From Pyrinomonadaceae bacterium (GTDB taxonomy: Bacteria; Acidobacteriota; Blastocatellia; Pyrinomonadales; Pyrinomonadaceae), in assembly GCA_035316225.1 (NCBI GenBank), contig DATHJK010000261.1, positions 1-34,429 of the forward strand: 34,429 nt of DNA, read 5' to 3'. Shown in pieces: positions 3,055 to 33,475 of the stretch; positions within the stretch are counted from its first letter, which is position 1, and every line of letters starts with the position of its first letter. The notes beneath the pieces are model-generated. The model did no database searches. It saw only the letters and a program-made list of their open reading frames with translations, and was not told the origin of the DNA. The position numbers were made by a program, and so were the translations under genes.

Positions 3055-3107
3055 TGAGGGATGAAAGAATAACTGTTCGTGTTGAATAGCTATTCTTTCA
3101 TCCCTCA
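3055..3107. repeat. GGGATGA-family hairpin (17-bp perfect stem, 19-nt loop)
   Basis: TGAGGGATGAAAGAATA (3055-3071) is the exact reverse complement of 3091-3107. A third partial copy, CTTTCATCCCTG, lies at 3117-3128. The element sits just 3' of the PBP4 gene stop. Confidence 0.85.
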
Positions 3108-3132
3108 CGTTGCCGCTTTCATCCCTGCTTTT

Positions 3133-4512
3133 CTACGGAGCAGGTTCGTACTCGTTATTGTTTTGACCAGCCGATTCAGATTCTGTGTTGGCAAGGCGCA
3201 TCGCTAGCGTCTGCGGGCGATATTGGAATGGCGCTGGGCCGCCGCGCGAATTCTGCAACTGAGTTACGAGCGCATCCTGATTCTGGCGAAAGCGCATGAC
3301 GTTGCCGCGCTGGTTGAAGATGACGAAGAGTAGAGTTTCGCCGCTTGCCGTGTTCATCTGGCCTACGAGCGCGCTCGCTCCGCCGTCTGTTCTGACGAGA
3401 GTGCCGGTTTTGGCAATCACACTTCCGCGCGCTTGTCCTTCGGTGAAGCGCTTTTCCAGCGTGCCGGGATCAATGCCAGCGACCGGGAGAATATCTGAAG
3501 GTTGCAGATGATTCTTAGCAAGCTCGTCGCTGAGCGCACGATATATCTTCATCATCGCGCGCGGTGTGACTCGGTTGACGCCAAGACCACTGGTCGAAGC
3601 CAGACGAACTTCATCGGGACGAATGCCCAGATTGTTGATCAGGTATCGTCTAACTGCTTCAGGGCCGCCAACATTGTCTCCAATGCGCTCTGCCATGAAA
3701 TTATTCGAGTAGCAGAGAAGAACTTTCAGAATGTCTGGAAGCGTGCTCGAACGATGGACTAGCAGCATACGAGCGTTGGCCGGAACAGTCCCTATGTAAA
3801 CCGCTCCCATGACGGTCACGCTCGGCGCGGACTGTAAGCCTGCTGTGTCGCCCAGCGTTATGCGCTCCTGTCTCCACGCTTCCGTAGCCTGCGCCGAACG
3901 CCGCGTATCATCCAGCGTGTCGTAAAAACTGTTACCCGACCCTTGCGCAGACCAGTCGAAGTTCATAGTGAATTTCGGCGGCACTACCAGATCGCCTGTT
4001 ACCGTACGTATTCCCAGGCGGTTTAGCTCGCGCGCAACCATCACAGCGTGCTCGAAGTGGAAGGAAGGATCACGCCCTGAAATGATAAGGTTGCCGTTGA
4101 TCGTTCCCGTCGCTGCGTCGAATGAGCCGTCAGTCCAGATTGCTGTGATGAAGCGATGCTGTACTCCGAAGTTATGAAGAGCTACAAGTGAAATTGCCAG
4201 CTTCACTGCCGACGCTGGATTGAATGCTTGGTCAGCAGCCTGCTCGGCCACGACTCGACCATCCAGTGTTTCAACCAGCATGCCTTGAAGACCGGAAATG
4301 TTGGTTGGGATAGGCGGCTGCGCAATATCCGGCGCGGGCTGAAGCGGTCTGGATAGAACTGTTGGGCGCACCAGAGAAGGTGCCGGGGCAGGCTCATCCG
4401 TCGTCGGCTGCTGTGCAAACGCATCAAGCGGCCACGCCGCGAAAAACAGGAGCGCGAAAATGATTGCCAGATGATTAAGACGGATGCGCTTGCTCATTCT
4501 TCTCTTCTTCAT
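3133..4512 (-). CDS. dacB: D-alanyl-D-alanine carboxypeptidase/endopeptidase, PBP4 (peptidase S13) family
   Basis: Carries SxxK (PASAVKL), SxN (YSNN) and KTG (AKTGT) motifs in the correct order. Signal peptide MKKRRMSKRIRLNHLAIIFALLFFAAWPLDAFA. I chose ATG 4512 rather than the ORF-track start at 4572. Confidence 0.85.
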   Translation of the reverse strand: MKKRRMSKRIRLNHLAIIFALLFFAAWPLDAFAQQPTTDEPAPAPSLVRPTVLSRPLQPAPDIAQPPIPTNISGLQGMLVETLDGRVVAEQAADQAFNPASAVKLAISLVALHNFGVQHRFITAIWTDGSFDAATGTINGNLIISGRDPSFHFEHAVMVARELNRLGIRTVTGDLVVPPKFTMNFDWSAQGSGNSFYDTLDDTRRSAQATEAWRQERITLGDTAGLQSAPSVTVMGAVYIGTVPANARMLLVHRSSTLPDILKVLLCYSNNFMAERIGDNVGGPEAVRRYLINNLGIRPDEVRLASTSGLGVNRVTPRAMMKIYRALSDELAKNHLQPSDILPVAGIDPGTLEKRFTEGQARGSVIAKTGTLVRTDGGASALVGQMNTASGETLLFVIFNQRGNVMRFRQNQDALVTQLQNSRGGPAPFQYRPQTLAMRLANTESESAGQNNNEYEPAP

Positions 4513-4690
4513 GAAAATGTTTCGGGGGATGAGTAATATAATACGGTAACCTGTGCGGCAGCGTCCATCCATAAATTTCTCGCAAGGGGAAGAGACTATT
4601 TAAGCCCTTTATTCGATGCGAGGCGTGCTCCTGCGGGATGCACGACGGCGAGCGTGTGAATGAATGCGCAGATTCATTAAATTCAATTCG

Positions 4691-4720
4691 TTGACAATAG
4701 CGCAAACGCGCTCATAATAT
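4691..4720 (+). promoter_or_regulatory. Sigma70-like promoter candidate for the ogg gene
   Basis: TTGACA (4691-4696), then a 16-18 nt spacer, then CATAATAT (4713-4720), about 20 nt upstream of the TTG start. Confidence 0.45.
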
Positions 4721-4741
4721 TCTCAGTGTTGACAGTCGTCC

Positions 4742-5407
4742 TTGTTGAGTTTGAATCGAACACCCGCCACGATTGAAACTATTCGCGCTGCGCATCGCTC
4801 GCGCCGCCGGATGATTCGCGCGCGTCTAGCGGAGTTTCGCGCCGTCTGGGATGAAGGATCGGACGAGCGTCTGTGGGAGGAACTGGTCTACTGCATCTTC
4901 ACTGCTGGCGCTTCGGCGCGCATGGGTCTTCGTTCTGTAGAGGCCGTGAGGCATCTGTTGTTTGAAGGATCGCATCAAGAGTTAACGAATGCGCTCGAAG
5001 GCGTCCATCGTTATCCACGGTCGCGCCCCGGCTACATCCTTGTGACGCGCGAATACCTGCGCGAAGATTGCGGGATGCGCCTTCGTGAGCGGCTTCTAAG
5101 TTTCTCCGACGCGCTTGCGCGCCGCGACTGGCTCGCAAAAGAGAAGAGAGTCAAAGGGCTTGGCTATAAAGAGTCCAGCCACTTTCTTCGCAATGTTGGA
5201 CTGAGCGGCTATGCTATCCTGGACAAGCACATCCTTCGCTGTCTTGCAGAACTTGGTGTTATAGAGTCTCCCCAGCCGCCGTCAACCCGCTCGCGCTATC
5301 TTGAGACGGAAGATCGCCTGCGGCGCTTTGCGCGCGACACGCGCATTGATTTCGACGAGCTTGACCTTGTTCTCTGGTCAATGAAGACCGGAGAAGTATT
5401 AAAGTAA
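4742..5407 (+). CDS. ogg: 8-oxoguanine DNA glycosylase/AP lyase, archaeal-type Ogg2 (HhH-GPD)
   Basis: Motifs LWEELVYCIFTAGASA, KGLGYKESSHFLRNVG, AILDKHIL and the C-terminal LDLVLWSMKTGEVLK closely track the Methanocaldococcus Ogg sequence as I recall it (GIGYKEASHFLRNVG...IIDRHIL...LDLYIWYLRTGKVLK). TTG start. Confidence 0.8.
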   Translation: MLSLNRTPATIETIRAAHRSRRRMIRARLAEFRAVWDEGSDERLWEELVYCIFTAGASARMGLRSVEAVRHLLFEGSHQELTNALEGVHRYPRSRPGYILVTREYLREDCGMRLRERLLSFSDALARRDWLAKEKRVKGLGYKESSHFLRNVGLSGYAILDKHILRCLAELGVIESPQPPSTRSRYLETEDRLRRFARDTRIDFDELDLVLWSMKTGEVLK

Positions 5408-5409
5408 GT

Positions 5410-5483
5410 GATGAATGATGAGTGCAGAATGATGAATAAGAAGAATTTGTCTTTAATTCATCATTCTGCACTCATCATTCATC
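5410..5483. repeat. GTGATGA-family hairpin (perfect 28-bp stem, 18-nt loop)
   Basis: GATGAATGATGAGTGCAGAATGATGAAT (5410-5437) is the exact reverse complement of 5456-5483. The arm reads as 7-nt units GTGATGA/ATGATGA/GTGCAGA/ATGATGA. Confidence 0.9.
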
Positions 5484-5501
5484 CCTTCAGGAGTTCCCCT
5501 G

Positions 5502-7109: not shown

Positions 7110-7579
7110 AGCAGAGCCTTTACCTGGAAACTTCTGTGGTCGGCGCTTATCTTGATAACGGCGAGCCGTTCCGGCGCGACCTGACGATTCGGTGGTGGGA
7201 GCACGAGTTGCCGGAGTATCGCGCTGTGGTCTCGCCGCTGGTTGCGCGCGAGCTCGAGCGCGTAGTGGAGCCGCACCGCACAGGCTATCTGAAACTTGTG
7301 GAGCCGCTCGAACAGGTCGAGTTGACGGACGAGGCGGCCATCCTCGCGGAAGGCTACATCTCGCGCGGCATCTTTCATCGCAAGTACATTGCCGACGCAG
7401 TGCATGTTGCTCTTGCTTCGTGTCATAAAATTGATTACTTGGTAACATGGAACTTCGGCCACCTGGCGAATGTGCGCCGTCAGGCTCGCATACGCCTATT
7501 CAACACGGCGGCAGGCTTCTTCGTCCCGATGATAGTGACCCCGGAGTTCCTGGTTTCGGAAGCAACAGAAAGGCAGTGA
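7106..7579 (+). CDS. PIN-domain-like protein (VapC-like nuclease fold, atypical acidic residues)
   Basis: 157 aa. YLETSVV, VARELERV, IADAVHVALA and VTWNFGHL occupy the positions of the four PIN acidic residues (E, E, D, N). The start overlaps the upstream stop (ATGA). Confidence 0.5.
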   Translation: MKQSLYLETSVVGAYLDNGEPFRRDLTIRWWEHELPEYRAVVSPLVARELERVVEPHRTGYLKLVEPLEQVELTDEAAILAEGYISRGIFHRKYIADAVHVALASCHKIDYLVTWNFGHLANVRRQARIRLFNTAAGFFVPMIVTPEFLVSEATERQ

Positions 7580-7648
7580 TGAATGCAAAGTGCAGAGTGA
7601 TGAACTGAAAAGCATTTAATTCATCACTCATCATTCTGCATTCATCAC
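7576..7648. repeat. GTGATGA-family hairpin, paralogue of 5410-5483 (imperfect stem)
   Basis: Left arm GTGATGAATGCAAAGTGCAGAGTGATGAA (7576-7604) and right arm 7620-7648. The outer 12 bp and inner 10 bp pair, with an internal mismatch block. The left arm matches about 25/30 nt of the arm at 5408-5437. It overlaps the PIN gene stop codon. Confidence 0.85.
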
Positions 7649-7654
7649 TTCATT

Positions 7655-7897
7655 ATGTATCGCAAGCCCAGATTTCTGGAAGAGCTGCACGCTATACGCG
7701 AGGAGATGTCGCGCGAGGCGGATTATGATGTTGACCTGTTCGCGGAGATGGTTCGCTCCGGCGTTAGACCCAGACACGGGGCCGAGCGAAATATACGGGG
7801 CTTCAAGAGTCGTGCGCTGCGCGAAGTCGAATCAACTGCTCGTTCAGCTTCTGAATCACCTTCACAACAGAAACGTCGCAAACGTTCTGCCAGATAA
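7655..7897 (+). CDS. Small hypothetical protein (80 aa), possible partner of the PIN-like gene
   Basis: The N-terminal half (MYRKPRFLEELHAIREEMSREADYDVDLFAEMV) looks coding. The C-terminal half is basic and low-complexity. No SD; the ATG follows the hairpin directly. Confidence 0.4.
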   Translation: MYRKPRFLEELHAIREEMSREADYDVDLFAEMVRSGVRPRHGAERNIRGFKSRALREVESTARSASESPSQQKRRKRSAR

Positions 7898-7940
7898 GAC
7901 GTTCGATTTTGTATGTAAGATTATTTCATAATGAGCTACA

Positions 7941-7974
7941 CTAACATCCGACATCATACATCTGACATCTGAAC
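7941..7974. repeat. Single-arm heptamer tract (ACATCYG type)
   Basis: AACATCC GACATCA TACATCT GACATCT GAAC, followed by CTTTT and the ATG at 7979. It is the complement of the tract at 15455-15500. Confidence 0.8.
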
Positions 7975-7978
7975 TTTT

Positions 7979-8767
7979 ATGGACGTGACGTTTGAGACAA
8001 TCGGGCTTGAAGTGCCGAGCGAGAAAGCTTTCAACTACCTCGCGGAGCGAGCGGGCAATCAAGGCGAGGCGACGCAACTGATGCGGCGAGGCGCTGTGCT
8101 TCACGGTCGCTGCTGGAAGTTGGGCGAAGGTCTTGAAGTCTGGACGGTGCTTTACGAATCGGGCACTGGCGAGATTTTCTACGCCGACTGTCGCCCAGGC
8201 TTTAGAGCGCGCTACACGCAGCGCATAAGCCCCTGGGCTTTGACTGAATACGATGAAGAGGGCGAGGCAGTCATTCACGGCTACTGCGATGGCACGGACA
8301 CGGAAGTTCTGTTCGAGCTTCAAAATCTTACGGAGGTGGGCGCGCAGGGTTTCCGCGCGCAGGAGCTTCACGTAGGCTTGTGCGGCCTAGCCTATAGAGC
8401 GCGCGTCTGCTCGCGCCCGGTGAAAGCGCGCTGGCAGCCTCTGGAGCAGACTGCGCCGTCTCGTGCGGCGCACGAAAACGATTGGGGACTGACCGGGCGC
8501 GTTATCGCCTTCAAGCCGCTTCGCAACCCGCTTTCTGGAAGCAACCTTTACTGGGTTTACGTTGATCTGGATCGTCTCAAGCTCGAAATCCTGGTGAACG
8601 GGCGCTCGCTGCGCGGCGGTAACCTTCAGATCGGCGCAACCATTTCCGCAGAAGTCTGGTTGCAAGGCCACGTGCTGGACGAGCGAGCGCTTCGTTCTCG
8701 CTTCGAGGGCGTTGACCCTGCTTATGCGACCGTCGCTTTCTGGCAAGGGCTGAGAAGGAGAAATTAA
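7979..8767 (+). CDS. Hypothetical cytoplasmic protein (262 aa), no family recognised
   Basis: Long ORF with GC-rich third positions like its neighbours. No signal peptide or motif that I can name. Confidence 0.6.
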   Translation: MDVTFETIGLEVPSEKAFNYLAERAGNQGEATQLMRRGAVLHGRCWKLGEGLEVWTVLYESGTGEIFYADCRPGFRARYTQRISPWALTEYDEEGEAVIHGYCDGTDTEVLFELQNLTEVGAQGFRAQELHVGLCGLAYRARVCSRPVKARWQPLEQTAPSRAAHENDWGLTGRVIAFKPLRNPLSGSNLYWVYVDLDRLKLEILVNGRSLRGGNLQIGATISAEVWLQGHVLDERALRSRFEGVDPAYATVAFWQGLRRRN

Positions 8768-8768
8768 T

Positions 8769-8856
8769 CAGGAGTCAGAATTCAGAAGCCATTAGCCAGA
8801 AGAAAAGTTTGCATCCGCATATCTTCTGACTCTTGACTCCTGACTTCTGACTCCTG
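8769..8856. repeat. CAGGAGT/CAGAAGT heptamer hairpin (5 units per arm), followed by a T-run
   Basis: Left arm CAGGAGT CAGAATT CAGAAGC CATTAGC CAGAAGA (8769-8803). The reverse complement of the right arm (8822-8856) reads CAGGAGT CAGAAGT CAGGAGT CAAGAGT CAGAAGA, about 29/35 complementary. CTTTTTT then the ATG at 8864 follow. Confidence 0.85.
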
Positions 8857-8863
8857 CTTTTTT

Positions 8864-9490
8864 ATGAAACGCCTGCTCGTCATCCTCATCCTTCTTGTGC
8901 TCGTGGGCGCGGGCGCGTACTTTTTCAATCAATACTGGATTCACCGCTTCGATCCGTTGATAGCTCGTCAGGCGGGCATCTATCGCATTGACCCTGATCT
9001 GGTGTGGTGCGTCGTTTACGAGGAGACGTATTTTCGCCCGTGGAAGGTTGGAAACGACGGCGAGATTGGATTGATGCAGATAACGCCTGCCGTGGGGCGC
9101 ATGTGGGCTACAGAGACGGGCATGCGTGATTTCGAGCGGCAGATGGCACAAGACCCTAAGAAATTTTTAAGTGACCCAGAGCGCAACATACAGATAGGTT
9201 GCTGGTATCTTGAGAAATTCTACGAGCAGTTCCGCGACATGCCGGGCGCAGAGGCTCGCATGGTCGCAGGCTACAACGCAGGCGCTAGCCGCGCGGAGGA
9301 GTGGAATCGCTCTTCCGATAATCGCCAGCTTTCCGCAGACGAATTCATAACGCGCATTGACATACCTTCCACGCGCGCTTACGTCTCTTCGATCCTCAAC
9401 CGATACAGAAAACTGAAAGCAGAGAGAGCAAGAGAGCAGCAGCAGCTACAGGCGAATTCTAATGCAAACTCGGCGGGGGGCGGGCATTGA
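8864..9490 (+). CDS. Lytic transglycosylase, SLT domain (GH23), membrane-anchored
   Basis: N-terminal TM (LLVILILLVLVGAGAYFF). Catalytic-Glu region VVYEETYFRP, plus GLMQI and AGYNAG motifs. Confidence 0.8.
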   Translation: MKRLLVILILLVLVGAGAYFFNQYWIHRFDPLIARQAGIYRIDPDLVWCVVYEETYFRPWKVGNDGEIGLMQITPAVGRMWATETGMRDFERQMAQDPKKFLSDPERNIQIGCWYLEKFYEQFRDMPGAEARMVAGYNAGASRAEEWNRSSDNRQLSADEFITRIDIPSTRAYVSSILNRYRKLKAERAREQQQLQANSNANSAGGGH

Positions 9491-12241: not shown

Positions 12242-12307
12242 GTGAATCGTAAATCGTGGTTAAGAGCTTTCGCGCTCTGCTTTTTCAATTCACGATTTAC
12301 GATTCAC
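12242..12307. repeat. GTGAATC/GTAAATC hairpin (perfect 17-bp stem) with a small terminator-like hairpin in its loop
   Basis: GTGAATCGTAAATCGTG (12242-12258) is the exact reverse complement of 12291-12307. The loop contains AGAGC-tttcgc-GCTCT followed by GCTTTTT (12263-12285). Confidence 0.85.
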
Positions 12308-13793: not shown

Positions 13794-13948
13794 GACACTT
13801 TCTCCTTTGATGAAAGGCGAGGGAAGTAAATGGAATTTAGAAGGATGAAGCGGCGGTCTGGACGAAGAGAGAGTTAATCGGCGAAAAGATTAGCGCGCGA
13901 TTCTACGGGACGAAAATGTGAATTGCGGAAGAGAAACATATGAAAAGC

Positions 13949-14035
13949 AGTGATGAGTGATGAGTGATAAGTGATAAGAAAGAACTAAAGCTTTTTGTCT
14001 TATCACTTATCACTTATCACTCATCACTTATCACT
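13949..14035. repeat. GTGATGA/GTGATAA heptamer hairpin (~30-bp stem, 18-nt loop)
   Basis: Left arm AGTGATGAGTGATGAGTGATAAGTGATAAGA (13949-13979), right arm 13998-14035. The inner 17 bp are perfect. The loop AAGAACTAAAGCTTTTTG resembles the loop of 5410-5483. Confidence 0.9.
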
Positions 14036-14047
14036 ATATCATTCATG

Positions 14048-15454: not shown

Positions 15455-15500
15455 CAGATGCCGGATGTCAGATGTTAGATGCTGGACATCAAGCATCTAC
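15455..15500. repeat. Single-arm heptamer tract (CAGATGY type) with a small internal hairpin
   Basis: CAGATGC CGGATGT CAGATGT TAGATGC, then TGGACATCAAGCATCTAC. TAGATGC (15476-15482) pairs with GCATCTA (15493-15499). On the minus strand it ends ...CATCTGCTTTTT directly before the cysS ATG. Confidence 0.8.
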
Positions 15501-15566
15501 TTACTTTAGGGAAGGAAGATTTTTGAGTCAAACGCGGAGTGGTGTGGGGTGAACGGTTTTAGAGTC

Positions 15567-15663
15567 TCACGCAAAGACGCAAAGGCGCTAAGAAGAACGC
15601 AAAGGAATTGAATAACATTTTCTTCTTGCGTCTTCTTCTTTGCGCCTTTGCATCTTTGCGTGA
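15567..15663. repeat. CGCAAAG-type hairpin (~40-nt imperfect arms)
   Basis: Left arm TCACGCAAAGACGCAAAGGCGCTAAGAAGAACGCAAAGGAA. The right arm's reverse complement is TCACGCAAAGATGCAAAGGCGCAAAGAAGAAGACGCAAGAAGAA. Begins 12 nt after the thiL stop. Confidence 0.85.
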
Positions 15664-15675
15664 AACCTATTTTTT

Positions 15676-16854
15676 CTAACCGAAATGCTCGAACCCGCCT
15701 CTCTCCAAGTCCCAAACGTGCGAGCCTTCAGATATGAGAATGCGTCCGGCTTCATCTGTAATGTCTCCTATGTATGTTACAGGTACGCCGTCAATTCTTC
15801 TGGGTAGGCGGCGAAGGTTGGGCGGGCGCACGGTGAAAAGAAGCTCGAAGTCCTCGCCGCCGTGCAGCGCCAGCATCAGTGGATCAAGCGCGCGCCGCCC
15901 GCAGGCAATCGCTACGTTGCGGTTGATTGGAATTCGCGCGGCCTCAATTTTCGCGCCGACCCGGCTCTCTTCGCACAGGTGCGCAAGGTCGGACGACAGA
16001 CCGTCGCTCAGATCAATCATGGCTGTCGCCAGCCTGTCTTCTCCCAGAAAGATGCCCCAGCCTGTGCGCGGCAAAGGTTCTCTCTGTCTGCGAACTAAAT
16101 TTTCTATCATGCGCGCCTCGCGCTCGCTTCCTCGTTTCGATTTCTCCGCTCCGCGCTCAAGCAGTCGCAATCCTGCGGCAGCGCCGCCAAGCGTTCCCGT
16201 CACGAAGATATGATCGCCTGCGCTTGCGCCGGAACGAAGCACAGCGCCGCCACTCATCGTTTCTCCCATCAAGATTGAATCAATAACTATTCGCTCAGGC
16301 GTGCGCGACACGTCGCCGCCCACTAACGTAACGTCATGTTCGTCGGCTAGCGCGAAGAAGCCCTGATAAAAATCGTCAACGAACGATGAGCGCCAGACTT
16401 TTGGGGGGACTCCGAGCGAAACGAGCGCCCATACGGGTCTCGCTCCCATCGCTGCTATGTCCGAGAGCGAAACTGCAAGCGCCTTGTGCCCTAGAAGCGA
16501 TGCGGGAGTGTACGAGAGCCTGAAATCTATATCTTCAACGAGTAAATCCGCCGTGATAACGGTGTCGCGCCCGGAAGTCTGTTTGATAACAGCCGCATCA
16601 TCGCCAATGCCGGAAATGAGGGATGAGGGATGAGGGATGAGGGATGAATGAATGAAGCTTTGCTCTGAACTATGTTTAAGGGCGCGTTGTCGGATTTTTT
16701 GTATAAGGTCAAACTCGCTGCGAGATGAGTTATCAGAAGACGCAGAAGGACTGATGAAAGTTTCGCTGTTAGAAGATGAAGCGCGTTTATGTCTTTCCAC
16801 TTGTCTGCGCGACTCGGCGTCTGCGCGTCTCAACTCCTCGTCTTCATCCCTCAT
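15676..16854 (-). CDS. thiL: Thiamine-monophosphate kinase, with a repeat-derived in-frame insertion near the N-terminus
   Basis: SEFDLIQKI...GIGDDAAVI...ADLLVEDIDF...GGD match the ThiL/AIR-synthase-like pattern. The start is uncertain: the ATG at 16854 lies inside a repeat, and in-frame TTG and GTG alternatives lie 7 and 18 codons downstream. Confidence 0.8.
   Translation of the reverse strand: MRDEDEELRRADAESRRQVERHKRASSSNSETFISPSASSDNSSRSEFDLIQKIRQRALKHSSEQSFIHSSLIPHPSSLISGIGDDAAVIKQTSGRDTVITADLLVEDIDFRLSYTPASLLGHKALAVSLSDIAAMGARPVWALVSLGVPPKVWRSSFVDDFYQGFFALADEHDVTLVGGDVSRTPERIVIDSILMGETMSGGAVLRSGASAGDHIFVTGTLGGAAAGLRLLERGAEKSKRGSEREARMIENLVRRQREPLPRTGWGIFLGEDRLATAMIDLSDGLSSDLAHLCEESRVGAKIEAARIPINRNVAIACGRRALDPLMLALHGGEDFELLFTVRPPNLRRLPRRIDGVPVTYIGDITDEAGRILISEGSHVWDLERGGFEHFG
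16616..16656. repeat. (GAGGGAT)x4 tract inside the thiL coding sequence
   Basis: Plus strand ATGAGGGATGAGGGATGAGGGATGAGGGATGAATGAATGAA. On the minus strand it is read in frame as FIHSSLIPHPSSLIS. Confidence 0.9.
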
Positions 16855-16872
16855 CCCTCATCCCTCATCCCT
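16843..16872. repeat. (TCATCCC)x4 tract, inverted copy of 16616-16656
   Basis: Four exact TCATCCC units at 16844-16871. They fill the gap between the aminotransferase stop (16873-16875) and the annotated thiL ATG. Confidence 0.9.
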
Positions 16873-18131: not shown

Positions 18132-18244
18132 GAAAGGGGTAAAAGGGAGAAGAGGGAATAGGTGAAAAGGAAAAGAGCTTGCTTTAAGCAGAACCGCTTT
18201 CACTCTCCTTATAGCCTCTTACACTTTTTACTCTCTTCCCCTTC
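18132..18244. repeat. Purine-rich/pyrimidine-rich imperfect hairpin
   Basis: The left arm (18132-18177) is almost all G/A. The right arm (18197-18244) is almost all C/T and is an imperfect complement of the left arm. Confidence 0.7.
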
Positions 18245-18654: not shown

Positions 18655-18997
18655 GGTCTATTCCTTTCCGTTGGTGATTATGCGAAGCGACGCGCGTTAT
18701 ATCTCATCTACACGGAAAGGCGCAACCCTTAATAGCGAGAGCTATACAGTGAATTCGCAAGAGAAGACCTTCTAACTCTTTAACTCCTTTCTTTACATTA
18801 GCCGAAATATATATATGCAACTGGTCAGACAGGAATTTGCAGCTTTCCAACGTCCTGTGGCTCGCGTATGGCCGAAGTGGAATGTTTCGCCTCATTCCTT
18901 ATAGATAGGCAGAGAAGTTGACAGAAAAATTCCGCGATGATTTGAAATGATCTTCATTAGCGGTTTAATTTGAACCATTATTTGCAACTAAAAGTTC

Positions 18998-19026
18998 TTG
19001 ACATACCTTTGGCCGTAAACTATCGT
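18998..19026 (+). promoter_or_regulatory. Sigma70-like promoter candidate for the 520-aa gene
   Basis: TTGACA (18998-19003), a 17-nt spacer, then TATCGT (19021-19026). This implies a leader of about 245 nt. Confidence 0.45.
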
Positions 19027-19278
19027 GCGCAGGTCACAATGGCCAACTGGAACGCTGATAAGTCTTCTTAGATCAGCTTATTCTCCTACTTAAACGGCAG
19101 GAACAACGCAACTGTTAGTTTCCAGACCCGCGCGCTTTGCAGGATAGGTATCGTCCGGTTGCGTCACTTACCCGCACTGATTGAAGAATCTCACGGCCTC
19201 GAAACTGGCCGTTTGAATCCAACTTGTAATCTCAGTTCTTCGCCTGCTCGTTAATGAATCAAAAATTAGACAGGAGGA

Positions 19279-20841
19279 ATGATGTTCAACCTCAACGCAA
19301 CGCTGGACAACCTGATCTCTATGGTCGTGGTGCTCCTCGCCCTGAGTCTTGTCGTGCAGGCTGTACAGGCAGCCATCAAGAAAGCTTTCAAACTCAAGTC
19401 GCGCCAGATCGAAGAATCTCTTGCGCATCTCTTTCAATTCGTCCTGCATAATGAGACCAGCGCGCAAGTGAAGACGCCCGGCGACCAGCCCGCGAACACA
19501 TCGGTCAACGAGTTTGGCGGGTTAAGAGCAATGATCGCTCAGTCACCCTTCCTTCGTATATTCGCGCATTTCTTCATGCGGCTACTCGGTCTGATACCCT
19601 GGGCGGGCAGGTTTTTTAAGGGCGACTGGGCACGCCATCCTGCGGAACGTGACGAGTTCAAGGACGCGGCGGCTCTCTATAACGAAGTGATGAATAAATT
19701 CGGGAGCATCGGTCGAACCGCCTTATCCACTCGCCCCATCTTCGACTCCCTCTCGAAAAGCGATCTGCTTAACGTCGTCGGCAGCATAGCCCCCGGAAAA
19801 GTGGACTCGAACTTCTGGGATAAAGTTGAAAAGGCCGAGGGTCTATTCAAAGAGTTGGAAGATAAGTTTCAGGCATGGGAAGTTGCGCTCAATGGGTTCG
19901 ACCTTAAAAGCGCCGCCGGTTATCTGAGCGATGACGACAAAGCAAAGCTCGCCGATATGCAGGCGAAGTTTAAGCCTCTGATCGCTGATCTTCGTATGCT
20001 TCTCACAATTAATCTGGGCAGCCCGCCTGAAATTGAAGATGCTGCCACGACGCTGATTGATGACATCGCCAAATTGCGAGCGATCAATCTGGACGACGTG
20101 CTGAAGATTCTAGCTGACGTAAGGTCAAGGATTGCTCAAGCTTTAGAGAGAGCAAATCTGGATAATAAAGCTGATCTGGTGAGAGCTTTGACTGTTCTGG
20201 ATACAGAACTGAAGAATCTCTCTGATGCCTTCACTTCCTTGCGTCAGAAATTCACAGACGTTTTCGCCAACTGGGTTAAGTTGGAGAACTATTTCGACAC
20301 CGTAATGCAGAGCTTCGAGGAACGCTACACACGCGCCATGAAGACGGCGGTCATAGTCATCAGCTTCATTGTGGTCGTCTTCCTCAACGCCAATTTCTTC
20401 AATGTTTATCAACAAATCTCGACCAGCGACACAACCCGCGCGCTGATCTTGCAGTCGCGCGAAGATGTTGTGCGGGCGCTCACAAACGGCGGTCAGCAGC
20501 CGACAGAGCAGACCGTAGAAACCTGGTTCAATACAAGCCGGGAGGAGATTAGCAGAGATGCAAGTATCTTCACAGGCTATGGGTTTGCGCCAATCACTCT
20601 GCACGACACGGGAAAATGGTGGGGGACTTTATGGTCGAGCGGTAACTGGTGGATGTATCGCAAGCATGATGCGAGAGTTCTTCTGGGCTGGCTCATCATG
20701 GCGCTATTGCTCAGCGTCGGCGCTCCGTTCTGGCAAGACTTCCTTGAATCTTTATTCGGAATTAAGAACGTGTTGCGTAAGAGCAGCCAGACACAGAACG
20801 TTGAGGAGGCTCCGGGAGCAGGCCAGACCAAGCAGTCTTAG
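19279..20841 (+). CDS. Hypothetical membrane protein (N-terminal TM, long coiled-coil-like middle, two C-terminal TMs)
   Basis: AGGAGG lies 1-2 nt-spaced upstream (19272-19277). TM segments are ISMVVVLLALSLVVQAV, AVIVISFIVVVFLNANFF and VLLGWLIMALLLSVGAPFW. The central ~200 aa are helical, with charged heptad-like repeats. No family recognised. Confidence 0.7.
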   Translation: MMFNLNATLDNLISMVVVLLALSLVVQAVQAAIKKAFKLKSRQIEESLAHLFQFVLHNETSAQVKTPGDQPANTSVNEFGGLRAMIAQSPFLRIFAHFFMRLLGLIPWAGRFFKGDWARHPAERDEFKDAAALYNEVMNKFGSIGRTALSTRPIFDSLSKSDLLNVVGSIAPGKVDSNFWDKVEKAEGLFKELEDKFQAWEVALNGFDLKSAAGYLSDDDKAKLADMQAKFKPLIADLRMLLTINLGSPPEIEDAATTLIDDIAKLRAINLDDVLKILADVRSRIAQALERANLDNKADLVRALTVLDTELKNLSDAFTSLRQKFTDVFANWVKLENYFDTVMQSFEERYTRAMKTAVIVISFIVVVFLNANFFNVYQQISTSDTTRALILQSREDVVRALTNGGQQPTEQTVETWFNTSREEISRDASIFTGYGFAPITLHDTGKWWGTLWSSGNWWMYRKHDARVLLGWLIMALLLSVGAPFWQDFLESLFGIKNVLRKSSQTQNVEEAPGAGQTKQS

Positions 20842-20901
20842 ACAGTAATCGCCGCATCCCGGTTAATAGCCTTACTGCAACGAAGGGCAGATCAGACGGC
20901 G

Positions 20902-20951
20902 GAAGGCTAAGGACGTGAGAAGCCGAATTAATTCTCACGCCCTTAGCCTTC
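20902..20951 (+). terminator. Long hairpin 3' of the 520-aa gene (possible terminator, no T-tract)
   Basis: GAAGGCTAAGGACGTGAGAA pairs with TTCTCACGCCCTTAGCCTTC (19/20) across a 10-nt loop. Confidence 0.35.
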
Positions 20952-21065
20952 GCTCTCTAAACAGGTCAATTGCAATCTAATATCATGTGCGTCATATGGT
21001 GAATCCACATGGCGAGTCTCTTCATTCAACCCTCTTCTCAAGCTCCAACGCCTAAATATAAGTTA

Positions 21066-21829: not shown

Positions 21830-21906
21830 CGGGGCGTGGCGCAGCCTGGTAGCGCGTTCGCTTGGGGTGCGAAAGGTCGGCGGTTCAAATCCGCCCGTCC
21901 CGACCA
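21830..21906 (+). tRNA. tRNA-Pro (anticodon GGG), CCA encoded
   Basis: Folded by hand. Acceptor CGGGGCG/CGTCCCG (one G-T), D stem GCGC/GCGC, anticodon stem TTCGC/GCGAA with loop TTGGGGT (GGG, G37). Variable loop AGGTC, T arm GGCGG-TTCAAAT-CCGCC, discriminator A, then CCA. Confidence 0.9.
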
Positions 21907-21921
21907 GTAAGTAAAGGGGTG

Positions 21922-21947
21922 CGGCCACTTTTGCAGGTGGCCGTTTT
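21922..21947 (+). terminator. Rho-independent terminator after tRNA-Pro
   Basis: CGGCCAC-ttttgcag-GTGGCCG followed by TTTT. Confidence 0.6.
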
Positions 21948-22010
21948 CCTCTGGATACATAATCAAAAGGTTTGAGTTCAAACCCAAAGCTGGTAACATA
22001 AAATTCAAAA

Positions 22011-23393
22011 ATGGCTGAACCAATAACAATTTCACAAATCGAAACGCTTCCAAGCACTACTTCAGGGGCGGGGGAGCAAGTCATTCAGGATAATCTTGAT
22101 TACACTCTATTTTCCTGGAGTAAACAAAAGGGAATAAATCCTATCGCTGTGAAATACGGCGATGGGGTTTATCTCTATGATTACGATGACAATCGTTATC
22201 TTGATTTTTCATCAGGGTTGATGAATGTAAATATCGGTCATGGCAATCAACGTGTGACTGAAGCAGTGGTAAGACAGATGCAGGAAGTGAGCTATGTGAC
22301 TCCATCCTGTGTTACCAAAGCGCGCGGTGAGTTGGGAAAGAAATTGGCGGAGATATGTCCCGGCGATCTGAATAAAGCATTCTTTACTTTATGCGGCGCT
22401 AGTTCTATTGAGAATGCAATTAAGCTGGCAAGGATTTATACAGGACGGCATAAAATACTCAGTCGTTATCAGTCATATCACGGCTCTTCCAGCGGCGCTA
22501 TGACGGCAAGCGGTGATCCACGTAAGCTTCCTGTAGATTCCCAACAAGCGCCGAATTTTGTTCATTTTGATCTGCCATATTTATATCGTTGGGAATATGG
22601 TGAAGAAAATTTATTGAAAGAGTGTGTTGCAAGTCTTGAACGGGTTATTGCTTATGAAGGCCCCGGCAATATTGCCGCTATTTTGTTGGAAGGTGAATCA
22701 GGTTCTTCAGGCTGTCTGAAATATCCTGCCGGTTATTTAAAACAGGTCAGAGAGATATGTGACAGGCATGGCATCCTGCTGATAATGGACGAGGTGATGA
22801 GCGGCTTTGGTCGTACGGGTAAATGGTTTGGTTTTGAAAATCACGACATCGTTCCTGATATGATCGCTATGGCAAAAGGTCTCACTTCCGGCTATCTACC
22901 TTTTGGCTGCTTAATGGTATCGGATAGGATTGCTTCAAAGTTTGACGATACCGTGCTTGCATTAGGACTCACCTACTCTGCCCATCCTGTTTGCTGCGCC
23001 GCTGCCTTAGAAATGCTGAAGATATACGAAGATGATAATTTAATTGCCAATGCTGCTGCGATGGGTAAGTATGTGGATGCCCAGGTGGAACTATTAAAAC
23101 AGAAACATCCAAGCATTGGCGATTGGAGAAATACAGGTTTGCTTGGCTGCCTTGAACTGGTGAAGAACAGAACGACTAAAGAACCTATAGCGCCTTTCAA
23201 TGCAAAGCCGGATGAAATGACGGTAATGAATAAAGTAGCGGCAAAGATCAAAGAGTTGGGCATGTACACGTTTGTAAGATGGAGCTATGTTTTTATTGCG
23301 CCGCCGCTTTGTATAACTGAGAAACAGATAGATGAAGGATTGAAGATCATCAGTGAGGCAATTAAGATTGCAGATGAGCATACAACTGCGTAG
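22011..23393 (+). CDS. Class-III PLP aminotransferase (omega-amino acid/pyruvate-type), visibly AT-rich
   Basis: DEVMSGFGRTGKWFG and the PLP lysine in AMAKGLTSGYLP. No SD; the upstream region is A-rich. Codon third positions are A/T-rich, unlike neighbouring genes. Confidence 0.8.
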   Translation: MAEPITISQIETLPSTTSGAGEQVIQDNLDYTLFSWSKQKGINPIAVKYGDGVYLYDYDDNRYLDFSSGLMNVNIGHGNQRVTEAVVRQMQEVSYVTPSCVTKARGELGKKLAEICPGDLNKAFFTLCGASSIENAIKLARIYTGRHKILSRYQSYHGSSSGAMTASGDPRKLPVDSQQAPNFVHFDLPYLYRWEYGEENLLKECVASLERVIAYEGPGNIAAILLEGESGSSGCLKYPAGYLKQVREICDRHGILLIMDEVMSGFGRTGKWFGFENHDIVPDMIAMAKGLTSGYLPFGCLMVSDRIASKFDDTVLALGLTYSAHPVCCAAALEMLKIYEDDNLIANAAAMGKYVDAQVELLKQKHPSIGDWRNTGLLGCLELVKNRTTKEPIAPFNAKPDEMTVMNKVAAKIKELGMYTFVRWSYVFIAPPLCITEKQIDEGLKIISEAIKIADEHTTA

Positions 23394-23462
23394 GAGTTGA
23401 TTGTTTATAGAAAGAGACCCGCCCCCGTAGAGGTCGAACATAAACTATAGAGCAGGAATACC

Positions 23463-23478
23463 AATCTGCCCGTCCGGA
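23463..23478 (+). repeat. Degenerate direct repeat of the tRNA-Pro 3' end (candidate att remnant)
   Basis: AATCTGCCCGTCCGGA versus tRNA positions 21888-21903 AATCCGCCCGTCCCGA (14/16). It is located where the AT-rich segment ends. Confidence 0.45.
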
Positions 23479-29538: not shown

Positions 29539-29790
29539 GTGCTTCTCCAAAGGGTTGAAAATTGAGAGAAAGAATTTCTTAGCTCAAGCGAAAGCCACGA
29601 AATTCTTTGAAGAGAGGGGCAGAGTTTCGTGCAGCAATCGCTTTTACGAGACAATAGAGAAATTAGTTTCTCTTCTACTGAAAAAGGTTGGCCTGAAGTC
29701 CAGAGCAGCCGGGGCTTTCGGTGAGATCATCGCTAATCTACTTTCCAGCCTTTTATCGTCCAAATTTTCGGATGTCTCTAGCCGCGACCG

Positions 29791-30216: not shown

Positions 30217-30258
30217 CAGTTCGGTCTCCTCAGATTGAAAATTTTTGAGAGCGCCCGG

Positions 30259-30292
30259 CTTAACTCTGCCGAACTTAACGCTTATGCTTAAC
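30259..30292. promoter_or_regulatory. Three direct CTTAAC(G) repeats in the OsmC/sucC divergent region (candidate operator)
   Basis: CTTAAC at 30259, 30274 and 30287 (spacing 15 and 13 nt), 43-76 nt upstream of the OsmC start. Confidence 0.3.
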
Positions 30293-30411
30293 GCCTTAGC
30301 AATAAGTAGCTGGCAACTTGCCGTCGCGGGGGGCATGCGGCTACACTTCGGAACAAAGATTTCCAGTCAGATGTTTAGCACGGAAAACCCATCATTGACA
30401 GGGGACTCAGG

Positions 30412-31575: not shown

Positions 31576-31592
31576 ATGAATTTCATTCAAAG

Positions 31593-31675
31593 GCGCAAAG
31601 AGATTGAATGAGTCTTCAAGGAAATATGAGAGCGCAGTATATTTTGTGCTCTCTCTTTGCGTCTTTGCGTGAGTC
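31593..31675. repeat. CGCAAAG-type repeat element (relative of 15567-15663)
   Basis: CGCAAAGAGA (31594-31603) pairs with TCTCTTTGCG (31652-31661). The reverse complement of 31657-31674 (TCACGCAAAGACGCAAAG) is identical to 15567-15584. Confidence 0.75.
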
Positions 31676-31684
31676 ATCCTATAG

Positions 31685-32203
31685 ATGAAACCAACTAGAA
31701 CAACAATTCTCAGATGGCTTGTGCTGCTATCACGCTTCGGGCTGGCCGCGCTCTTCCTTTTCGCTGTCGCGGCGAAGCTCTACTTCATCAACGACCGCGA
31801 GCACAGTTTCTTGAAGATGATGCCGAACCTTGTGGGCGAGCGTTGGGCGTTGCCAGTAGTGGTCGCCGTGTTCATAGCAGAAAGCGCAGCCGTCGTATTG
31901 CTGCTTTTGCCGCGCACGGTTCGCATAGGAGCAGTGTGGGCTGCCGCGTTGCTCATAGGTTTCGCGGCCTATGCGCTTTATTATCGCTATGGACTGGGGA
32001 ATGCAGAGGGGCTTGAATGCGGCTGCTTCGGCGGAATCATAGCAAGTCAACTCGGAGTGACAACTGCTCTGCGCAATCTCCTGCTTCTGATTCCCTGCGC
32101 TCTGGTCTTCTTCGGCCAGCCATACTTTCGTCAAAAAATTCAAGCGACAAGTGAGATGGAACAAGCCTCCGAGTCAGTACCGCCTGCGGTAGCGGGCGGG
32201 TAA
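31685..32203 (+). CDS. MauE/DoxX-like membrane protein
   Basis: Four hydrophobic segments and the CGCFG motif (LECGCFGGIIAS). The last ~10 codons and the stop lie within a repeat element. Confidence 0.65.
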   Translation: MKPTRTTILRWLVLLSRFGLAALFLFAVAAKLYFINDREHSFLKMMPNLVGERWALPVVVAVFIAESAAVVLLLLPRTVRIGAVWAAALLIGFAAYALYYRYGLGNAEGLECGCFGGIIASQLGVTTALRNLLLLIPCALVFFGQPYFRQKIQATSEMEQASESVPPAVAGG

Positions 32204-32254
32204 TCAACTTGGCCCAACGATGACCCCCCCGCGCTACCGCACACCACCACTCAC
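32173..32254. repeat. GTCAGTACCGCC-terminus element (copy 2, right end degenerate)
   Basis: GTCAGTACCGCCTGCGGTAGCGGGCGGGTAATC (32173-32205) matches the reverse complement of copy 1. The right end CCCGCGCTACCGCACACCACCACTCAC is a decayed inverted copy. Confidence 0.7.
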
Positions 32255-32260
32255 TTGGTC

Positions 32261-33208
32261 TTATCTTTGTCTTCTTGTTCTTACAGGCGTAGCGCGTATG
32301 CGCGCGATTTCGTATTGCGTGTTATCTATTCGCTCCTGCGCATCGGGGTGGTCGCTGAAGATGGAGCCTAATATGCTCGGCTCGCTGTGGGCTATCTGCT
32401 GCACTTTCCGAAGCATCGTGACCATGCCTTCAGGGTCGAATCCTGCTTTCGCTGCCCCATGCACGCCCAGGTAATCCGCCTCGCGCTCCTCATCGCGGCT
32501 GTGCGAAGCCAGCAACCCGCCCGCCACGGCCTGCGCCGCCGCTGTGCCCAGTTCACCAGCCGTCTGCCCGGCTATACCTGTTATCGAGCCGAAGACGTTC
32601 GCAAGGTCGCCCAGCGCCTGCGACTGTTGCAGCCTCTTCAAGCTGTGGCGCGCTACGACGTGTCCAATTTCGTGCGAGAGCACTGAAGCAAGCTCGTCAT
32701 CATTCGCAATCTCAACCAGAGCGTCTGTGACATAAACATGGCCGCCCGGCGTGGAGAAGGCATTCAGCTCGCGCGATTGAATGACGTGAAATTTGTATAG
32801 AAGACCGGGGCGCAAACTGGAGCGCGCAACACGCTGGCCTATGCTGTTGACGCGCTCCTGCCCTACGGTCGTGAACTGAACATGCTTGCCGACTTCCAGG
32901 TGGAATTGATTCCCAAGCCGAACCTCGTCGCGCTCGCTCATCAGCCCGGCGTTAGAATAATGCGCGCCGCGAAACTGCTCATAAGGGTCATACTGTAGCG
33001 AGCCTGTGGCGGTTGAGACGGCAGATGATACAACCGTAGAGCCTAAAGAGAAGATGTCGGAGATGATAGAGCGCTGCGAGTCCGTGTTATTGCTCGGCTG
33101 CTGCTGCTGGCGCTGTTGCGCGGGCGCGCCTGTAAAGGTTGTTAAAGTGATTGCCAGCGTGATAACTGCTATCAACAGCTTGCTATGTCTTGAATTAAGG
33201 GGGTTCAT
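32261..33208 (-). CDS. M48-family zinc metallopeptidase, secreted
   Basis: HEIGHVVARH (HExxH) and a signal peptide (LLIAVITLAITLTTFTGAPA). Confidence 0.85.
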   Translation of the reverse strand: MNPLNSRHSKLLIAVITLAITLTTFTGAPAQQRQQQQPSNNTDSQRSIISDIFSLGSTVVSSAVSTATGSLQYDPYEQFRGAHYSNAGLMSERDEVRLGNQFHLEVGKHVQFTTVGQERVNSIGQRVARSSLRPGLLYKFHVIQSRELNAFSTPGGHVYVTDALVEIANDDELASVLSHEIGHVVARHSLKRLQQSQALGDLANVFGSITGIAGQTAGELGTAAAQAVAGGLLASHSRDEEREADYLGVHGAAKAGFDPEGMVTMLRKVQQIAHSEPSILGSIFSDHPDAQERIDNTQYEIARIRATPVRTRRQR

Positions 33209-33340
33209 CCGTGTTCCTCTTTTTGAAATTCTTTCTGAAAGGTCATTCGATTCTAATAAGTTCGGCGCTTAATCCTTCGCCGCGCTTTCAACAATAGAGA
33301 CGATTACGGAAAAGAGCTTTTGCGAGCCAGCGCCAACCGT

Positions 33341-33475
33341 GTCAGTACCGCCTGAGAGAAGGGATGAGGGCGAAGGGATGAATAAGAATTCAGTGAACAG
33401 GTCAATATGCAATTCATTCAACCCATTTCATCCCTCATCCCTCATCCCTCATCCCTTCTTTCAGGCGGTACTGAC
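33341..33475. repeat. Composite hairpin: GTCAGTACCGCCTGA termini enclosing GGGATGA heptamer arms
   Basis: Left arm GTCAGTACCGCCTGAGAGAAGGGATGAGGGCGAAGGGATGAAT. The right arm's reverse complement is GTCAGTACCGCCTGAAAGAAGGGATGAGGGATGAGGGATGAGGGATGAAAT. Stem about 42 bp, loop about 41 nt. Confidence 0.9.

Follow-up and report, generated by a model that had tools for sequence, protein, structure and literature searches.

Approximately half of the gaps between genes in a 34,429-bp stretch of DNA from a Pyrinomonadaceae bacterium (contig DATHJK010000261.1, 54% G+C; hereafter the window) carry very stable hairpins with arms made of tandem 7-base units, and the question raised by this locus is what these hairpins are and how they are formed and kept. 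A first-pass annotation had proposed either a fast-diverging mobile family or an in-situ process of slippage and inverted duplication, but not simple terminators. Both processes find support in the present analysis, the one in the dispersal of families, the other in slippage with mirroring between the arms. The explanation that we favor, and hold to be fairly probable, is that the hairpins are fast-evolving, lineage-specific extragenic palindromic repeats resembling the repetitive extragenic palindromic (REP) sequences, with arms of tandem heptanucleotide (occasionally octanucleotide) arrays, shaped by slippage, arm-to-arm copying and dispersal.

A seven-nucleotide period in the arms of intergenic hairpins

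For detection of the arrays we employed Tandem Repeats Finder (TRF) together with a separate tract finder, using dinucleotide shuffles as the null, and an arm was classified as heptamer-periodic when its lag-7 self-identity was at least 60%. The samples were the window plus approximately 17 kb of its flanks (51.5 kb in total, from ENA ERZ27268080 k141_249831, a metagenome contig of 203 kb), 80 loci from related genomes (1.22 Mb in all), a further, independent set of 80 metagenome loci (0.81 Mb) and a 50-kb control from Escherichia coli [note that L-numbers such as L001, L006 and L033 denote comparison loci of about 21 kb, and that L081_3124 lies on the contig of the window itself]. In the window, 8 tracts of period 7 were detected against 0.2 in the shuffles, and other periods stayed near background except for the harmonic at period 14 (11 tracts) and a small excess at periods 3 and 8. 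The related genome loci gave 179 tracts of period 7, 34 of period 8, 130 at the harmonic 14 and at most 11 for any other period, and the metagenome loci gave 69, 23, 49 and at most 13, respectively. Lag-7 periodic arms were present in 73 of the 246 strong inverted repeats of the genome loci (about 30%), against 0-16 at other lags; in the E. coli control the rrnB terminator was the only strong inverted repeat, and period 7 gave no signal. The period-7 phenomenon is real, statistically robust and clade-wide. Within the clade, 89 distinct canonical units were counted among 239 tracts, with enrichment of the tetranucleotides TCAG, AGTC and GTCA (TCAG in 8 units against 1.2 expected); since none of the three occurs in all units, a universal unit motif was rejected.

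The hairpins of the window were then described by inverted-repeat search and TRF, and the description given by the first-pass annotation was confirmed in its essentials and corrected in its measures. All the hairpins that it listed were retrieved by the inverted-repeat finder except a weak one at 18132 (z = -3.3); one at 20902-20951 had been missed, and the tract at 16616, listed as intergenic, lies within the coding sequence of thiL. The arms are long, as claimed, measuring 16-41 nt instead of 17-45 nt, with 80-100% complementarity; for two of the hairpins the finder gave the limits 13949-14035 and 31583-31672. The loops, claimed to be of 12-41 nt, are of 5-75 nt, the value varying with the way in which the arms are delimited, and of 194 nt for the 16616/16843 pair. 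TRF detected period-7 arrays of 2.9-6 copies in most hairpin arms, single tracts at 7944-7972 and 15455-15481, and a perfect array pair, (ATGAGGG)4.6 at 16616-16647 and (TCATCCC)4.1 at 16844-16872. The occasional period of 8, also noted before, was found by TRF at 15569-15593, 15638-15660 and 31654-31670.

Predicted RNA folding of the window hairpins, other than the weak one at 18132, gave free energies (ΔG) of -30 to -84 kcal/mol (z = -7 to -14) with predicted stems of 20-35 bp. The region within 10 nt 3' of the stems contains 2-6 T, and a T run follows only the hairpin at 8766-8859, in agreement with the earlier remark that a T tract is mostly lacking. A scan for canonical terminators yielded 19 sites against 22.4 expected and no match on any heptamer stem, the sole match at any listed hairpin being a small hairpin within the loop of 12242-12307. 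The heptamer hairpins are not canonical intrinsic terminators, because the combination of a GC-rich stem and a U tract is missing; the unenriched scan, together with the location of several stems only 0-16 nt from the next start, bears out the view that they are not simple terminators.

A search of Rfam gave no match at the gathering threshold for the window hairpins. Under a permissive E-value, plant and animal microRNA (miRNA)-precursor models of Rfam were matched with 24-43 bits, against 62-100 bits required, and were rejected as reflections of the generic shape of a long hairpin; these sub-threshold matches, located at 5401-5490, 7568-7656, 13936-14039, 15566-15664 and 33345-33471, may mislead automated annotation. 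Readings as integron attC sites, CRISPR arrays or riboswitches were also dropped, in view of the syntenic housekeeping flanks, the lack of spacers and the lack of Rfam matches. The window also includes ordinary short inverted repeats without period 7, at 32185-32241 in a convergent gap (GC-rich, TGCGGTAGCGGGCGGG...) and at 29569-29608 after an M13 peptidase gene, and these two are candidates for the conventional terminators of this genome.

Unit families and their turnover at orthologous gaps

The first-pass annotation had assigned a different unit sequence to each locus, but this does not hold: the 16 heptamer hairpins of the 51.5-kb sample fall into about six recurrent unit families, within which copies have loops and unit order in common. 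GTGATGA/GTGATAA units occupy 6 loci, GGGATGA units 4, the 8-mer family CGCAAAG 2, GTRAATS 2 and CAGGAGT 1, and ACATCTG units occur at 2 loci, both of them single-arm tracts. An irregular order of variant units, GTGATGA-ATGxxxA-GTGCAGA-xTGATGA, together with the loop AATAAGAAG..TCTTTAATT, is common to the hairpins at 5406, 7570 and L081_3124, which lie in unrelated gaps of one contig with 81% column identity. Paralogous pairs with common loops and unit order at unrelated gaps were likewise found for L001_11438/21316, L006_425/1525 and L018_1244/2757, and L033 contains four GTGATAGG copies with common loops. The CGCAAAG family, represented in the window at 15564 and 31583, recurs in L001, L018 (twice), L074 and L009, with the termini GTYTCACGCAAAG...CTTTGCGTGARAC kept across several genomes and positions. 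Common loops and the same order of variant units at unrelated gaps indicate that the hairpins were copied from one another, and they are therefore taken as dispersed families, not independent inventions.

The fate of individual hairpins was followed at orthologous gaps. The gene order of the window from 7979 to 29176 is syntenic with L001 (80-87% nucleotide identity). Between the two, conservation of the hairpin at 8766 reaches 92%; those at 13949, 15564 and 16616/16843 have retained their outer arms and differ in the inner part; and at 15455 and 18132 another unit is found in the same place, L001 carrying a hairpin of AAAAGTC units at the 18132 site. At the 13949 site the loop (AAAAGCTTT.., with its palindromic centre) is orthologous in the window and L001, and in L001 extra CAGTTTT/AAAACTG arms are inserted between the old GTGATAA arms and the loop. 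New arrays arise between old arms and a conserved loop, that is, by growth from the apex. This L001 composite, with one outer unit and the loop included, has been copied to a second gap 10 kb away, where it adjoins the ATG of the gene orthologous to that at window position 7979, a place at which the window has a single-arm tract.

Comparison of L006 with L033, whose flanks are approximately 90% identical, showed sharply bounded differences in both arms for 5 of the 8 orthologous hairpins. A parallel switch has taken place in two neighbouring gaps, where L006 carries the CGTAAAT family and L033 the GGTAAAA family with a GAGGCGGAAGCCAC core. Gap 2 of this pair is empty in L003 and is occupied by an L033-type core in L056; L025 combines the same arms with a different core, and L016 has AGTCTGG arrays there. 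In the gap upstream of the SLT gene (the 8766 site), hairpins are present in nine of 13 genomes and represent six different complementary unit pairs (AGTCAGG, AGTCAGA, AGTCTGG, AGTCCCA, AGTGGTC and CAGATGT), and L015 is empty; the 8766 hairpin and its orthologues are followed by T3-6. A metagenome scan for strain-level relatives gave none except L084, which belongs to the same population as L001. Over 14.7 kb the identity of these two assemblies is 100%, save for a 41-nt indel (L084 3284-3324 against L001 9979) made up of exactly one arm plus a portion of the loop in the hairpin 5' of cysS; the indel may be a polymorphism or a difference of assembly. Pairwise whole-locus MAFFT alignment for detection of clean insertions gave few informative events, because replaced hairpins align as blocks of low identity. 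Taken together, the unit is the step by which arrays change; within one arm a substitution comes to occupy every unit (concerted evolution), and the opposite arm usually follows; hairpins are also copied to other gaps in their entirety, along with the loop, and orthologous gaps are found empty, filled or filled by another family.

Palindromic insertions without period 7 were also observed in the comparison loci. In L072, a 104-nt non-heptamer palindromic insertion at about 2234-2337, which the 93%-identical L024 lacks, has the 8-bp direct repeat ACTTGTCA on both sides, by its form a MITE-like target-site duplication. A REPIN/MITE-like non-heptamer family with the terminal inverted repeats TGTAGGACAGRCATTCCTGYCTGTC is present at L006 3935-4050, L033 4555-4692 and 16703-16861, and L043 2403-2520, its copies occupying non-orthologous positions, and further REP-like pairs were seen in L004 (CGACCCTGAAAGGGTCGCAC..) and in L011/L026.

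Position at stop and start codons, the thiL stem and the explanations considered

The hairpins are tied to the ends of genes. In the window, 9 of 10 start 0-9 nt from a stop codon and 5 of 10 end 0-14 nt before the next ATG; independent gene calls for the flanking loci gave the same stop-to-start placement. In the comparison loci, for which gap classes and distances rest on crude open reading frame (ORF) calls, the base of the stem lies mostly at -29 to +33 nt from the upstream stop (mode -2 to +5), and the following start is frequently 1-30 nt past the stem. The heptamer hairpins that could be classified (71 in total) were distributed over 51 co-directional, 8 convergent and 12 divergent gaps, compared with 364, 117 and 164, respectively, of 645 background gaps, whereas inverted repeats without the heptamer period are enriched in convergent gaps. 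With the exception of the translated arm in thiL, the heptamer hairpins are predominantly non-coding. Since no promoter fits the short spacers between such stems and the following starts, these hairpins would be transcribed within polycistronic mRNAs, and an efficient termination there is excluded if the downstream genes are expressed. By position, most of the hairpins would be internal to probable operons, half of them lying 0-16 nt from the next start.

The orientation of the arms was also analyzed. The purine-rich arm comes first in 11 of 11 window hairpins and at a ratio of 49:17 in the genome loci, but a rule that it always does so was rejected by the ratio of 7:11 in the metagenome set. 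Stops in all three frames are carried by 53 of 146 5' arms against 21 of 146 3' arms; as the purine-first polarity fails in the metagenome set, this excess is only a tendency.

The most elaborate case is the long-range stem at the start of thiL (minus-strand ORF, 15676-16854). On the minus strand, the 5' arm, (GGGATGA)4 at 16843-16872, follows right after the stop of the upstream aminotransferase gene and holds the in-frame thiL ATG at 16854, and the 3' arm, (TCATCCC)4.6 at 16616-16647, is coding and is translated into SSLIPHPSSL between the conserved EFxLI and GIGDDAA motifs of ThiL; the predicted ΔG for 16616-16872 is -98. An inner (GACGCGN) arm remains as a remnant at 16803-16830 (minus strand), and in L001 both inner arms are present as an additional in-frame pair, GGACGCG/CGCGTCC. 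The thiL indels between L001 and the window are of 42 and 24 nt, both multiples of three. Among 49 genomes, the basal ThiL linker is of 16 residues, and one sub-clade has an insert of 10-14 residues that is still a perfect array or has decayed, for instance to ALSTQHSALI; the reading frame is maintained through the arrays in about 20 genomes. The two arms covary: the N-terminus MRDE (GGGATGA) goes with SSLIPHPSSL (TCATCCC) in six genomes, and MSDE (GTGATGA) goes with SSLITHHSSL (TCATCAC) in L067, L073, L004 and L049. Of the six MRDE genomes, five (L006, L043, L051, L069 and the window) have perfect duplexes of 30-34 bp, and the arms of L001 align with those of the window but contain mismatches. 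As judged from these sequences, the 16616/16843 pair forms a long-range stem that has been maintained, and in which the start codon of thiL is buried immediately past the upstream stop; by analogy, this is the classical layout for translational coupling, and it could represent the clearest case of coupling from stop to start. Genomes with the ThiL insert are approximately 5-fold richer in heptamer tracts (median 2.3 against 0.47 per 10 kb, P = 8e-6, phylogeny uncorrected), and the heptamer density is clade-specific.

According to the explanation that we favor, replication slippage with a preference for 7 nt would make the arrays, template switching between the arms of one hairpin would keep the arms matched, and a copy-paste step, by a transposase acting in trans or by ectopic conversion, would carry the hairpins to other gaps. 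Transcribed together with the flanking genes, they would form RNA stems of 20-35 bp that could serve as intercistronic processing or stability elements, such as RNase III-type substrates or REP-like protectors of 3' ends, and could make downstream initiation depend on ribosomes terminating at the base of the stem. As to how the arms remain complementary, mismatches within the stems show no sense-strand G·U bias (33 against 30 in heptameric and 46 against 44 in other hairpins), and several hairpin centres are palindromic to the very middle. From these two observations, complementarity appears to be upheld mainly via copying at the DNA level and not via RNA selection that tolerates wobble pairs, and a selfish-DNA component is likely.

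Several observations weigh against this explanation or against parts of it. No transposase was found in the 51.5 kb of the source contig or in the 21-kb comparison loci, and neither a target-site duplication nor a conserved terminal motif was seen for the heptamer hairpins; comparison of filled with empty sites (empty in L003 and L015) likewise gave no clear flanking duplication. Twelve of the 71 classified hairpins lie in divergent gaps, where the logic of stop-to-start placement fails. The lack of a G·U bias tells against a strong purifying selection specific to RNA, and would be just as compatible with an element that is selfish or acts at the DNA level. In thiL, L033 and L003 are uncompensated intermediates in which one mismatch per unit is tolerated, so that the pairing is not strictly required. 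An RNA-level role (processing, stability or translational coupling) is what we infer from position and stem length only. A bolder version, according to which the hairpins are self-renewing palindromes that proceed by apex slippage, arm copying and copy-paste without a dedicated sequence-specific transposase, and have been recruited by the host as stop-to-start coupling or RNase III modules, including the start-burying stem whose distal arm the essential enzyme ThiL would tolerate as an inserted peptide, is possible and is put forward only tentatively.

The placement directly 3' of stops and the under-representation in divergent gaps would also be expected if the hairpins were functional terminators of the bidirectional kind lacking a U tract that has been reported from some GC-rich phyla, with the heptamers as an incidental by-product of slippage. 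Some of the hairpins look the part, namely those with GC-rich cores between A-rich and T-rich arrays (the GGTAAAA...TTTTACC family of L033 and L056), the one at 12242 with its terminator-like hairpin and T run in the loop, and that at 8766, which together with its orthologues is followed by T3-6. We nevertheless regard this as unlikely: with half of the window hairpins 0-14 nt from the next start there is no room for a promoter, and efficient termination would silence the downstream genes; the U tract is mostly absent and the canonical scan, unenriched, misses every heptamer stem; the hairpins are relatively depleted in convergent gaps (8/71 against 117/645), whereas inverted repeats without heptamers are enriched there; and a start codon, together with coding sequence, lies within the thiL stem. 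A purely local origin, in which each hairpin arises from slippage and inverted duplication in its own gap and common units reflect mutational or selective convergence, accounts well for the appearance of new arrays in situ between old arms and a conserved loop, for units at orthologous sites that differ by 1-2 homogenised substitutions, for single-arm tracts, for the arm-sized indel between two assemblies of one population, and for the 89 distinct units among 239 tracts. It is hard to reconcile with non-orthologous copies that have loops and an irregular order of variant units in common, with the duplication 10 kb away of the L001 composite including one unit of its outer arm, and with the parallel family switch of two neighbouring gaps between L006 and L033, and as a complete account we consider it quite improbable.

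The arrays could instead be translational enhancers or operators, bound by a protein whose footprint is about 7 nt (a single-strand binder of cold-shock or S1 type, or a DNA-binding regulator), with the hairpin being secondary. Agreeing with this idea are the two pyrimidine-rich single-arm tracts, alike in unit and orientation, that end 4-6 nt before starts, the 3' arms that are often followed by a T-rich spacer and then ATG, the enrichment of tetranucleotides such as TCAG among units, and similar proposals for TAACTGA of Beggiatoaceae and for Nostoc heptamers (PMC4679880; bioRxiv 10.1101/2022.06.06.494920). One sequence-specific protein could hardly recognize dozens of units per clade and about six per genome, however, the tracts are base-paired within the hairpins, and no candidate protein was identified, which leaves this idea very doubtful. 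Finally, the source is a k141 MEGAHIT-style contig, and two assemblies of a single population differ by one arm-sized indel, as might be expected from artefacts of short-read metagenome assembly at repeats; but the same architecture is found at orthologous positions in many independent assemblies, including MFD metagenome-assembled genomes (MAGs), and in the complete 5-Mb chromosomes OY969111, OY969475 and OY970256, and the frame is kept through the thiL arrays of about 20 genomes, so that the chance of an artefact is negligible. We thus return to dispersed REP-like repeats with slipping and mutually copied arms as the explanation to be preferred.

Individual hairpins of the window and likeness to known systems

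The genes across the window are ordinary housekeeping genes, coding for an S13 peptidase, OGG, a PIN protein, an SLT transglycosylase, an MFS transporter, an amidohydrolase, aminotransferases, CysS, ThiL and SucC, among others. The CysS protein is 91% identical to that of the MAG MNJR01000060 and 73-79% identical to those of 79 other Pyrinomonadaceae/Blastocatellia genomes. The first hairpin, at 3055-3107, has a GGGATGA-type outer arm (24-nt arms, 92% complementary; ΔG -32.7, z -12) and lies 25 nt 3' of the minus-strand S13 peptidase stop; it is included in a stretch of 830 nt (2304-3132) without a called gene, likewise in independent calls for L082, that also holds an AGAGGC tandem at 2496-2514. 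The two copies of the GTGATGA/GTGCAGA subfamily follow. One, at 5406-5487 (32-nt arms, 97%; ΔG -50.1; supported by family alignment), overlaps the OGG stop codon (5405-5407), with the next ATG at 5502. In the other, at 7570-7654 (supported by inverted-repeat search, folding and family alignment), the first unit supplies the stop TGA of the PIN gene (7577-7579), and the next ATG (7655) adjoins the stem. The hairpin of CAGGAGT/CAGAAGT units at 8766-8859 spans the distance from the stop at 8765-8767 to a CTTTTTT-ATG at 8864. At 12242-12307, GTGAATC/GTAAATC units form 17-nt arms, 100% complementary, in a convergent gap. The loop of this hairpin encloses a small GC-containing hairpin at 12263-12278, followed by GCTTTTTC, in the shape of a canonical terminator, and it may be that the heptamer arms were added on either side of a terminator that was there before.

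The hairpin of GTGATGA/GTGATAA units at 13949-14046, with the palindromic centre AAAGCTTT, is located 1 nt 3' of the minus-strand cysS stop. Two single-arm (ACATCTG)n tracts have the identical unit in the identical orientation toward the downstream gene: that at 7941-7974 (plus strand) ends 4 nt 5' of the ATG at 7979 with the sequence ..CTGAACTTTTATG, and that at 15455-15500 (minus strand) ends 6 nt 5' of the probable cysS ATG at 15448 with the sequence ..CTGCTTTTTATG. The annotated start of the cysS ORF, 15496, falls within the latter tract, and CysS homologues align only from residue 16-17; the real start is probably the ATG at 15448. The period-8 CGCAAAG family is represented at 15564-15666 (termini GTCTCACGCAAAG...CTTTGCGTGAAAC; ΔG -61.7), 9 nt 3' of the thiL stop, and again at 31583-31675, 7 nt 3' of the sucC stop and 9 nt 5' of the ATG at 31685. 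The weak and irregular hairpin at 18132-18244, with a purine-rich and a pyrimidine-rich arm (ΔG -34.3), lies 5 nt 3' of the stop of a SnoaL gene, and that at 20902-20951, with a weak period 7 (AAGGCTA/AAGGACG), lies 3' of the ORF 19279-20841. The last hairpin, at 33341-33475, is composite, with a non-heptamer outer stem (GTCAGTACCGCCTGAGAGAA) and inner GGGATGA/TCATCCC arrays (41-nt arms, 90%; ΔG -77 to -84). The (GGGATGA)4 arrays at 16616-16647, 16843-16872 and 33428-33456 fit the G-quadruplex pattern of four G3-N4 units on the purine strand, which is not possible for the other unit families.

The block from 18.7 to 31.5 kb is poor in hairpins, as the first-pass annotation had pointed out. Two segments of the window, 18704-21024 and 21903-23463, are missing from the syntenic L001; they flank a tRNA gene (21830-21903, plus strand), include a low-GC stretch at 22-24 kb (0.44-0.47) and look like island-type insertions. 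These segments partly explain the scarcity of hairpins in the block.

REP units are non-periodic palindromes of 20-40 nt with a conserved 5' GTAG, and are tied to RAYT transposases. The heptamer hairpins differ from them in having arms of 16-41 nt with period 7 and termini such as AGTGATGA.., CAGGAGTC.. and GTCTCACGC.., without GTAG. They resemble the REP, BIME and REPIN elements of Gammaproteobacteria (for REPIN see PMC3116915) in that they are short, extragenic, imperfect palindromes in multi-copy families, located after stops and within operons, and in that they evolve as replicating families within genomes, with proposed roles in protection of mRNA 3' ends and in differential expression of operons. 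The heptanucleotide itself is a favoured period of long simple sequence repeats (SSRs) in many bacteria, mostly in intergenic regions (Mrázek et al. 2007, as cited in PMC4679880 and PMC4692102), and the proposed cause is slippage of a polymerase whose footprint is about 7 nt (Mrázek 2007, as cited in PMC4679880). Heptamer arrays beside start codons are known for TAACTGA of Beggiatoaceae (PMC4679880) and for Nostoc (bioRxiv 10.1101/2022.06.06.494920). The long SSRs, the STRR heptamers of the cyanobacteria Calothrix and Nostoc, and the TAACTGA repeats of Beggiatoaceae are similar to those described here in their head-to-tail 7-nt units, non-coding and often 5' of starts, but are mainly single direct arrays, whereas in these Acidobacteriota they mostly form complementary pairs with stems of 20-40 bp.

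A close likeness in arrangement is to Xanthomonas campestris and X. axonopodis, with 70-75 inverted pairs of GGGAATC arrays per genome as potential stem-loops (Rehm et al. 2015, PMC4692102), in which the repeat type (single or inverted pair) is usually kept between species and its length varies (PMC4692102). Two intergenic arrays of the same unit face each other in one gap in both systems; in Xanthomonas, however, one G-rich, G-quadruplex unit is employed genome-wide, in contrast to the families of the 51.5-kb sample, of which only GGGATGA has this capacity, and the abutment on stop and start codons, the nesting, the turnover of units at orthologous sites and the translated arm are new here. 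Geobacter metallireducens has families of 4-5 tandem heptamers (GGACCGG x4 at 49 sites in and between genes, and MTYCTGA x5; PMC2700814), some drawn as paired strands and described only as putative regulator sites (PMC2700814), without the analysis of turnover, codon position or arm covariation presented here. In the 5' untranslated region (5'-UTR) of Haemophilus influenzae hmw1A, a long RNA hairpin with an (ATCTTTC)n arm is cleaved by RNase III with alteration of expression, and the change in repeat number requires the hairpin, transcription and RNase III (PMC12721329). The hairpins described here are similar in having a stem of at least approximately 20 bp with a heptamer arm, transcription being expected in their case from the co-directional position; they differ in that hmw1A is a single phase-variable virulence locus with a G-rich non-repeat second arm, while here both arms are arrays and dozens of housekeeping gaps are involved. 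A literature search found no report of such repeats in Acidobacteriota. As heptanucleotide SSRs and the inverted pairs of Xanthomonas have already been described, the novelty is smaller than the first-pass annotation implied, and lies in the multiple unit families, the positions tied to codons, the nesting, the concerted evolution and the one translated arm.

For genome annotation, the pyrimidine-rich arms, being open in all three frames, give rise to spurious ORFs and over-extended gene starts, recognizable by peptides such as SSLIPHP and SLITHHS. The earlier dismissal of these peptides as spurious ORFs does not always hold, since in thiL the insertion is real, conserved and in frame. The hairpins may also be fragile points for assembly. 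For the biology of the group, a clade of abundant soil Acidobacteriota provides a dense natural experiment, with dozens of unit families, co-varying arms, gaps that are empty, filled or replaced, and one pair reaching across a start codon into coding sequence, in which the origin of the 7-nt period, the upkeep of arm complementarity and the coupling or processing of neighbouring cistrons become testable.

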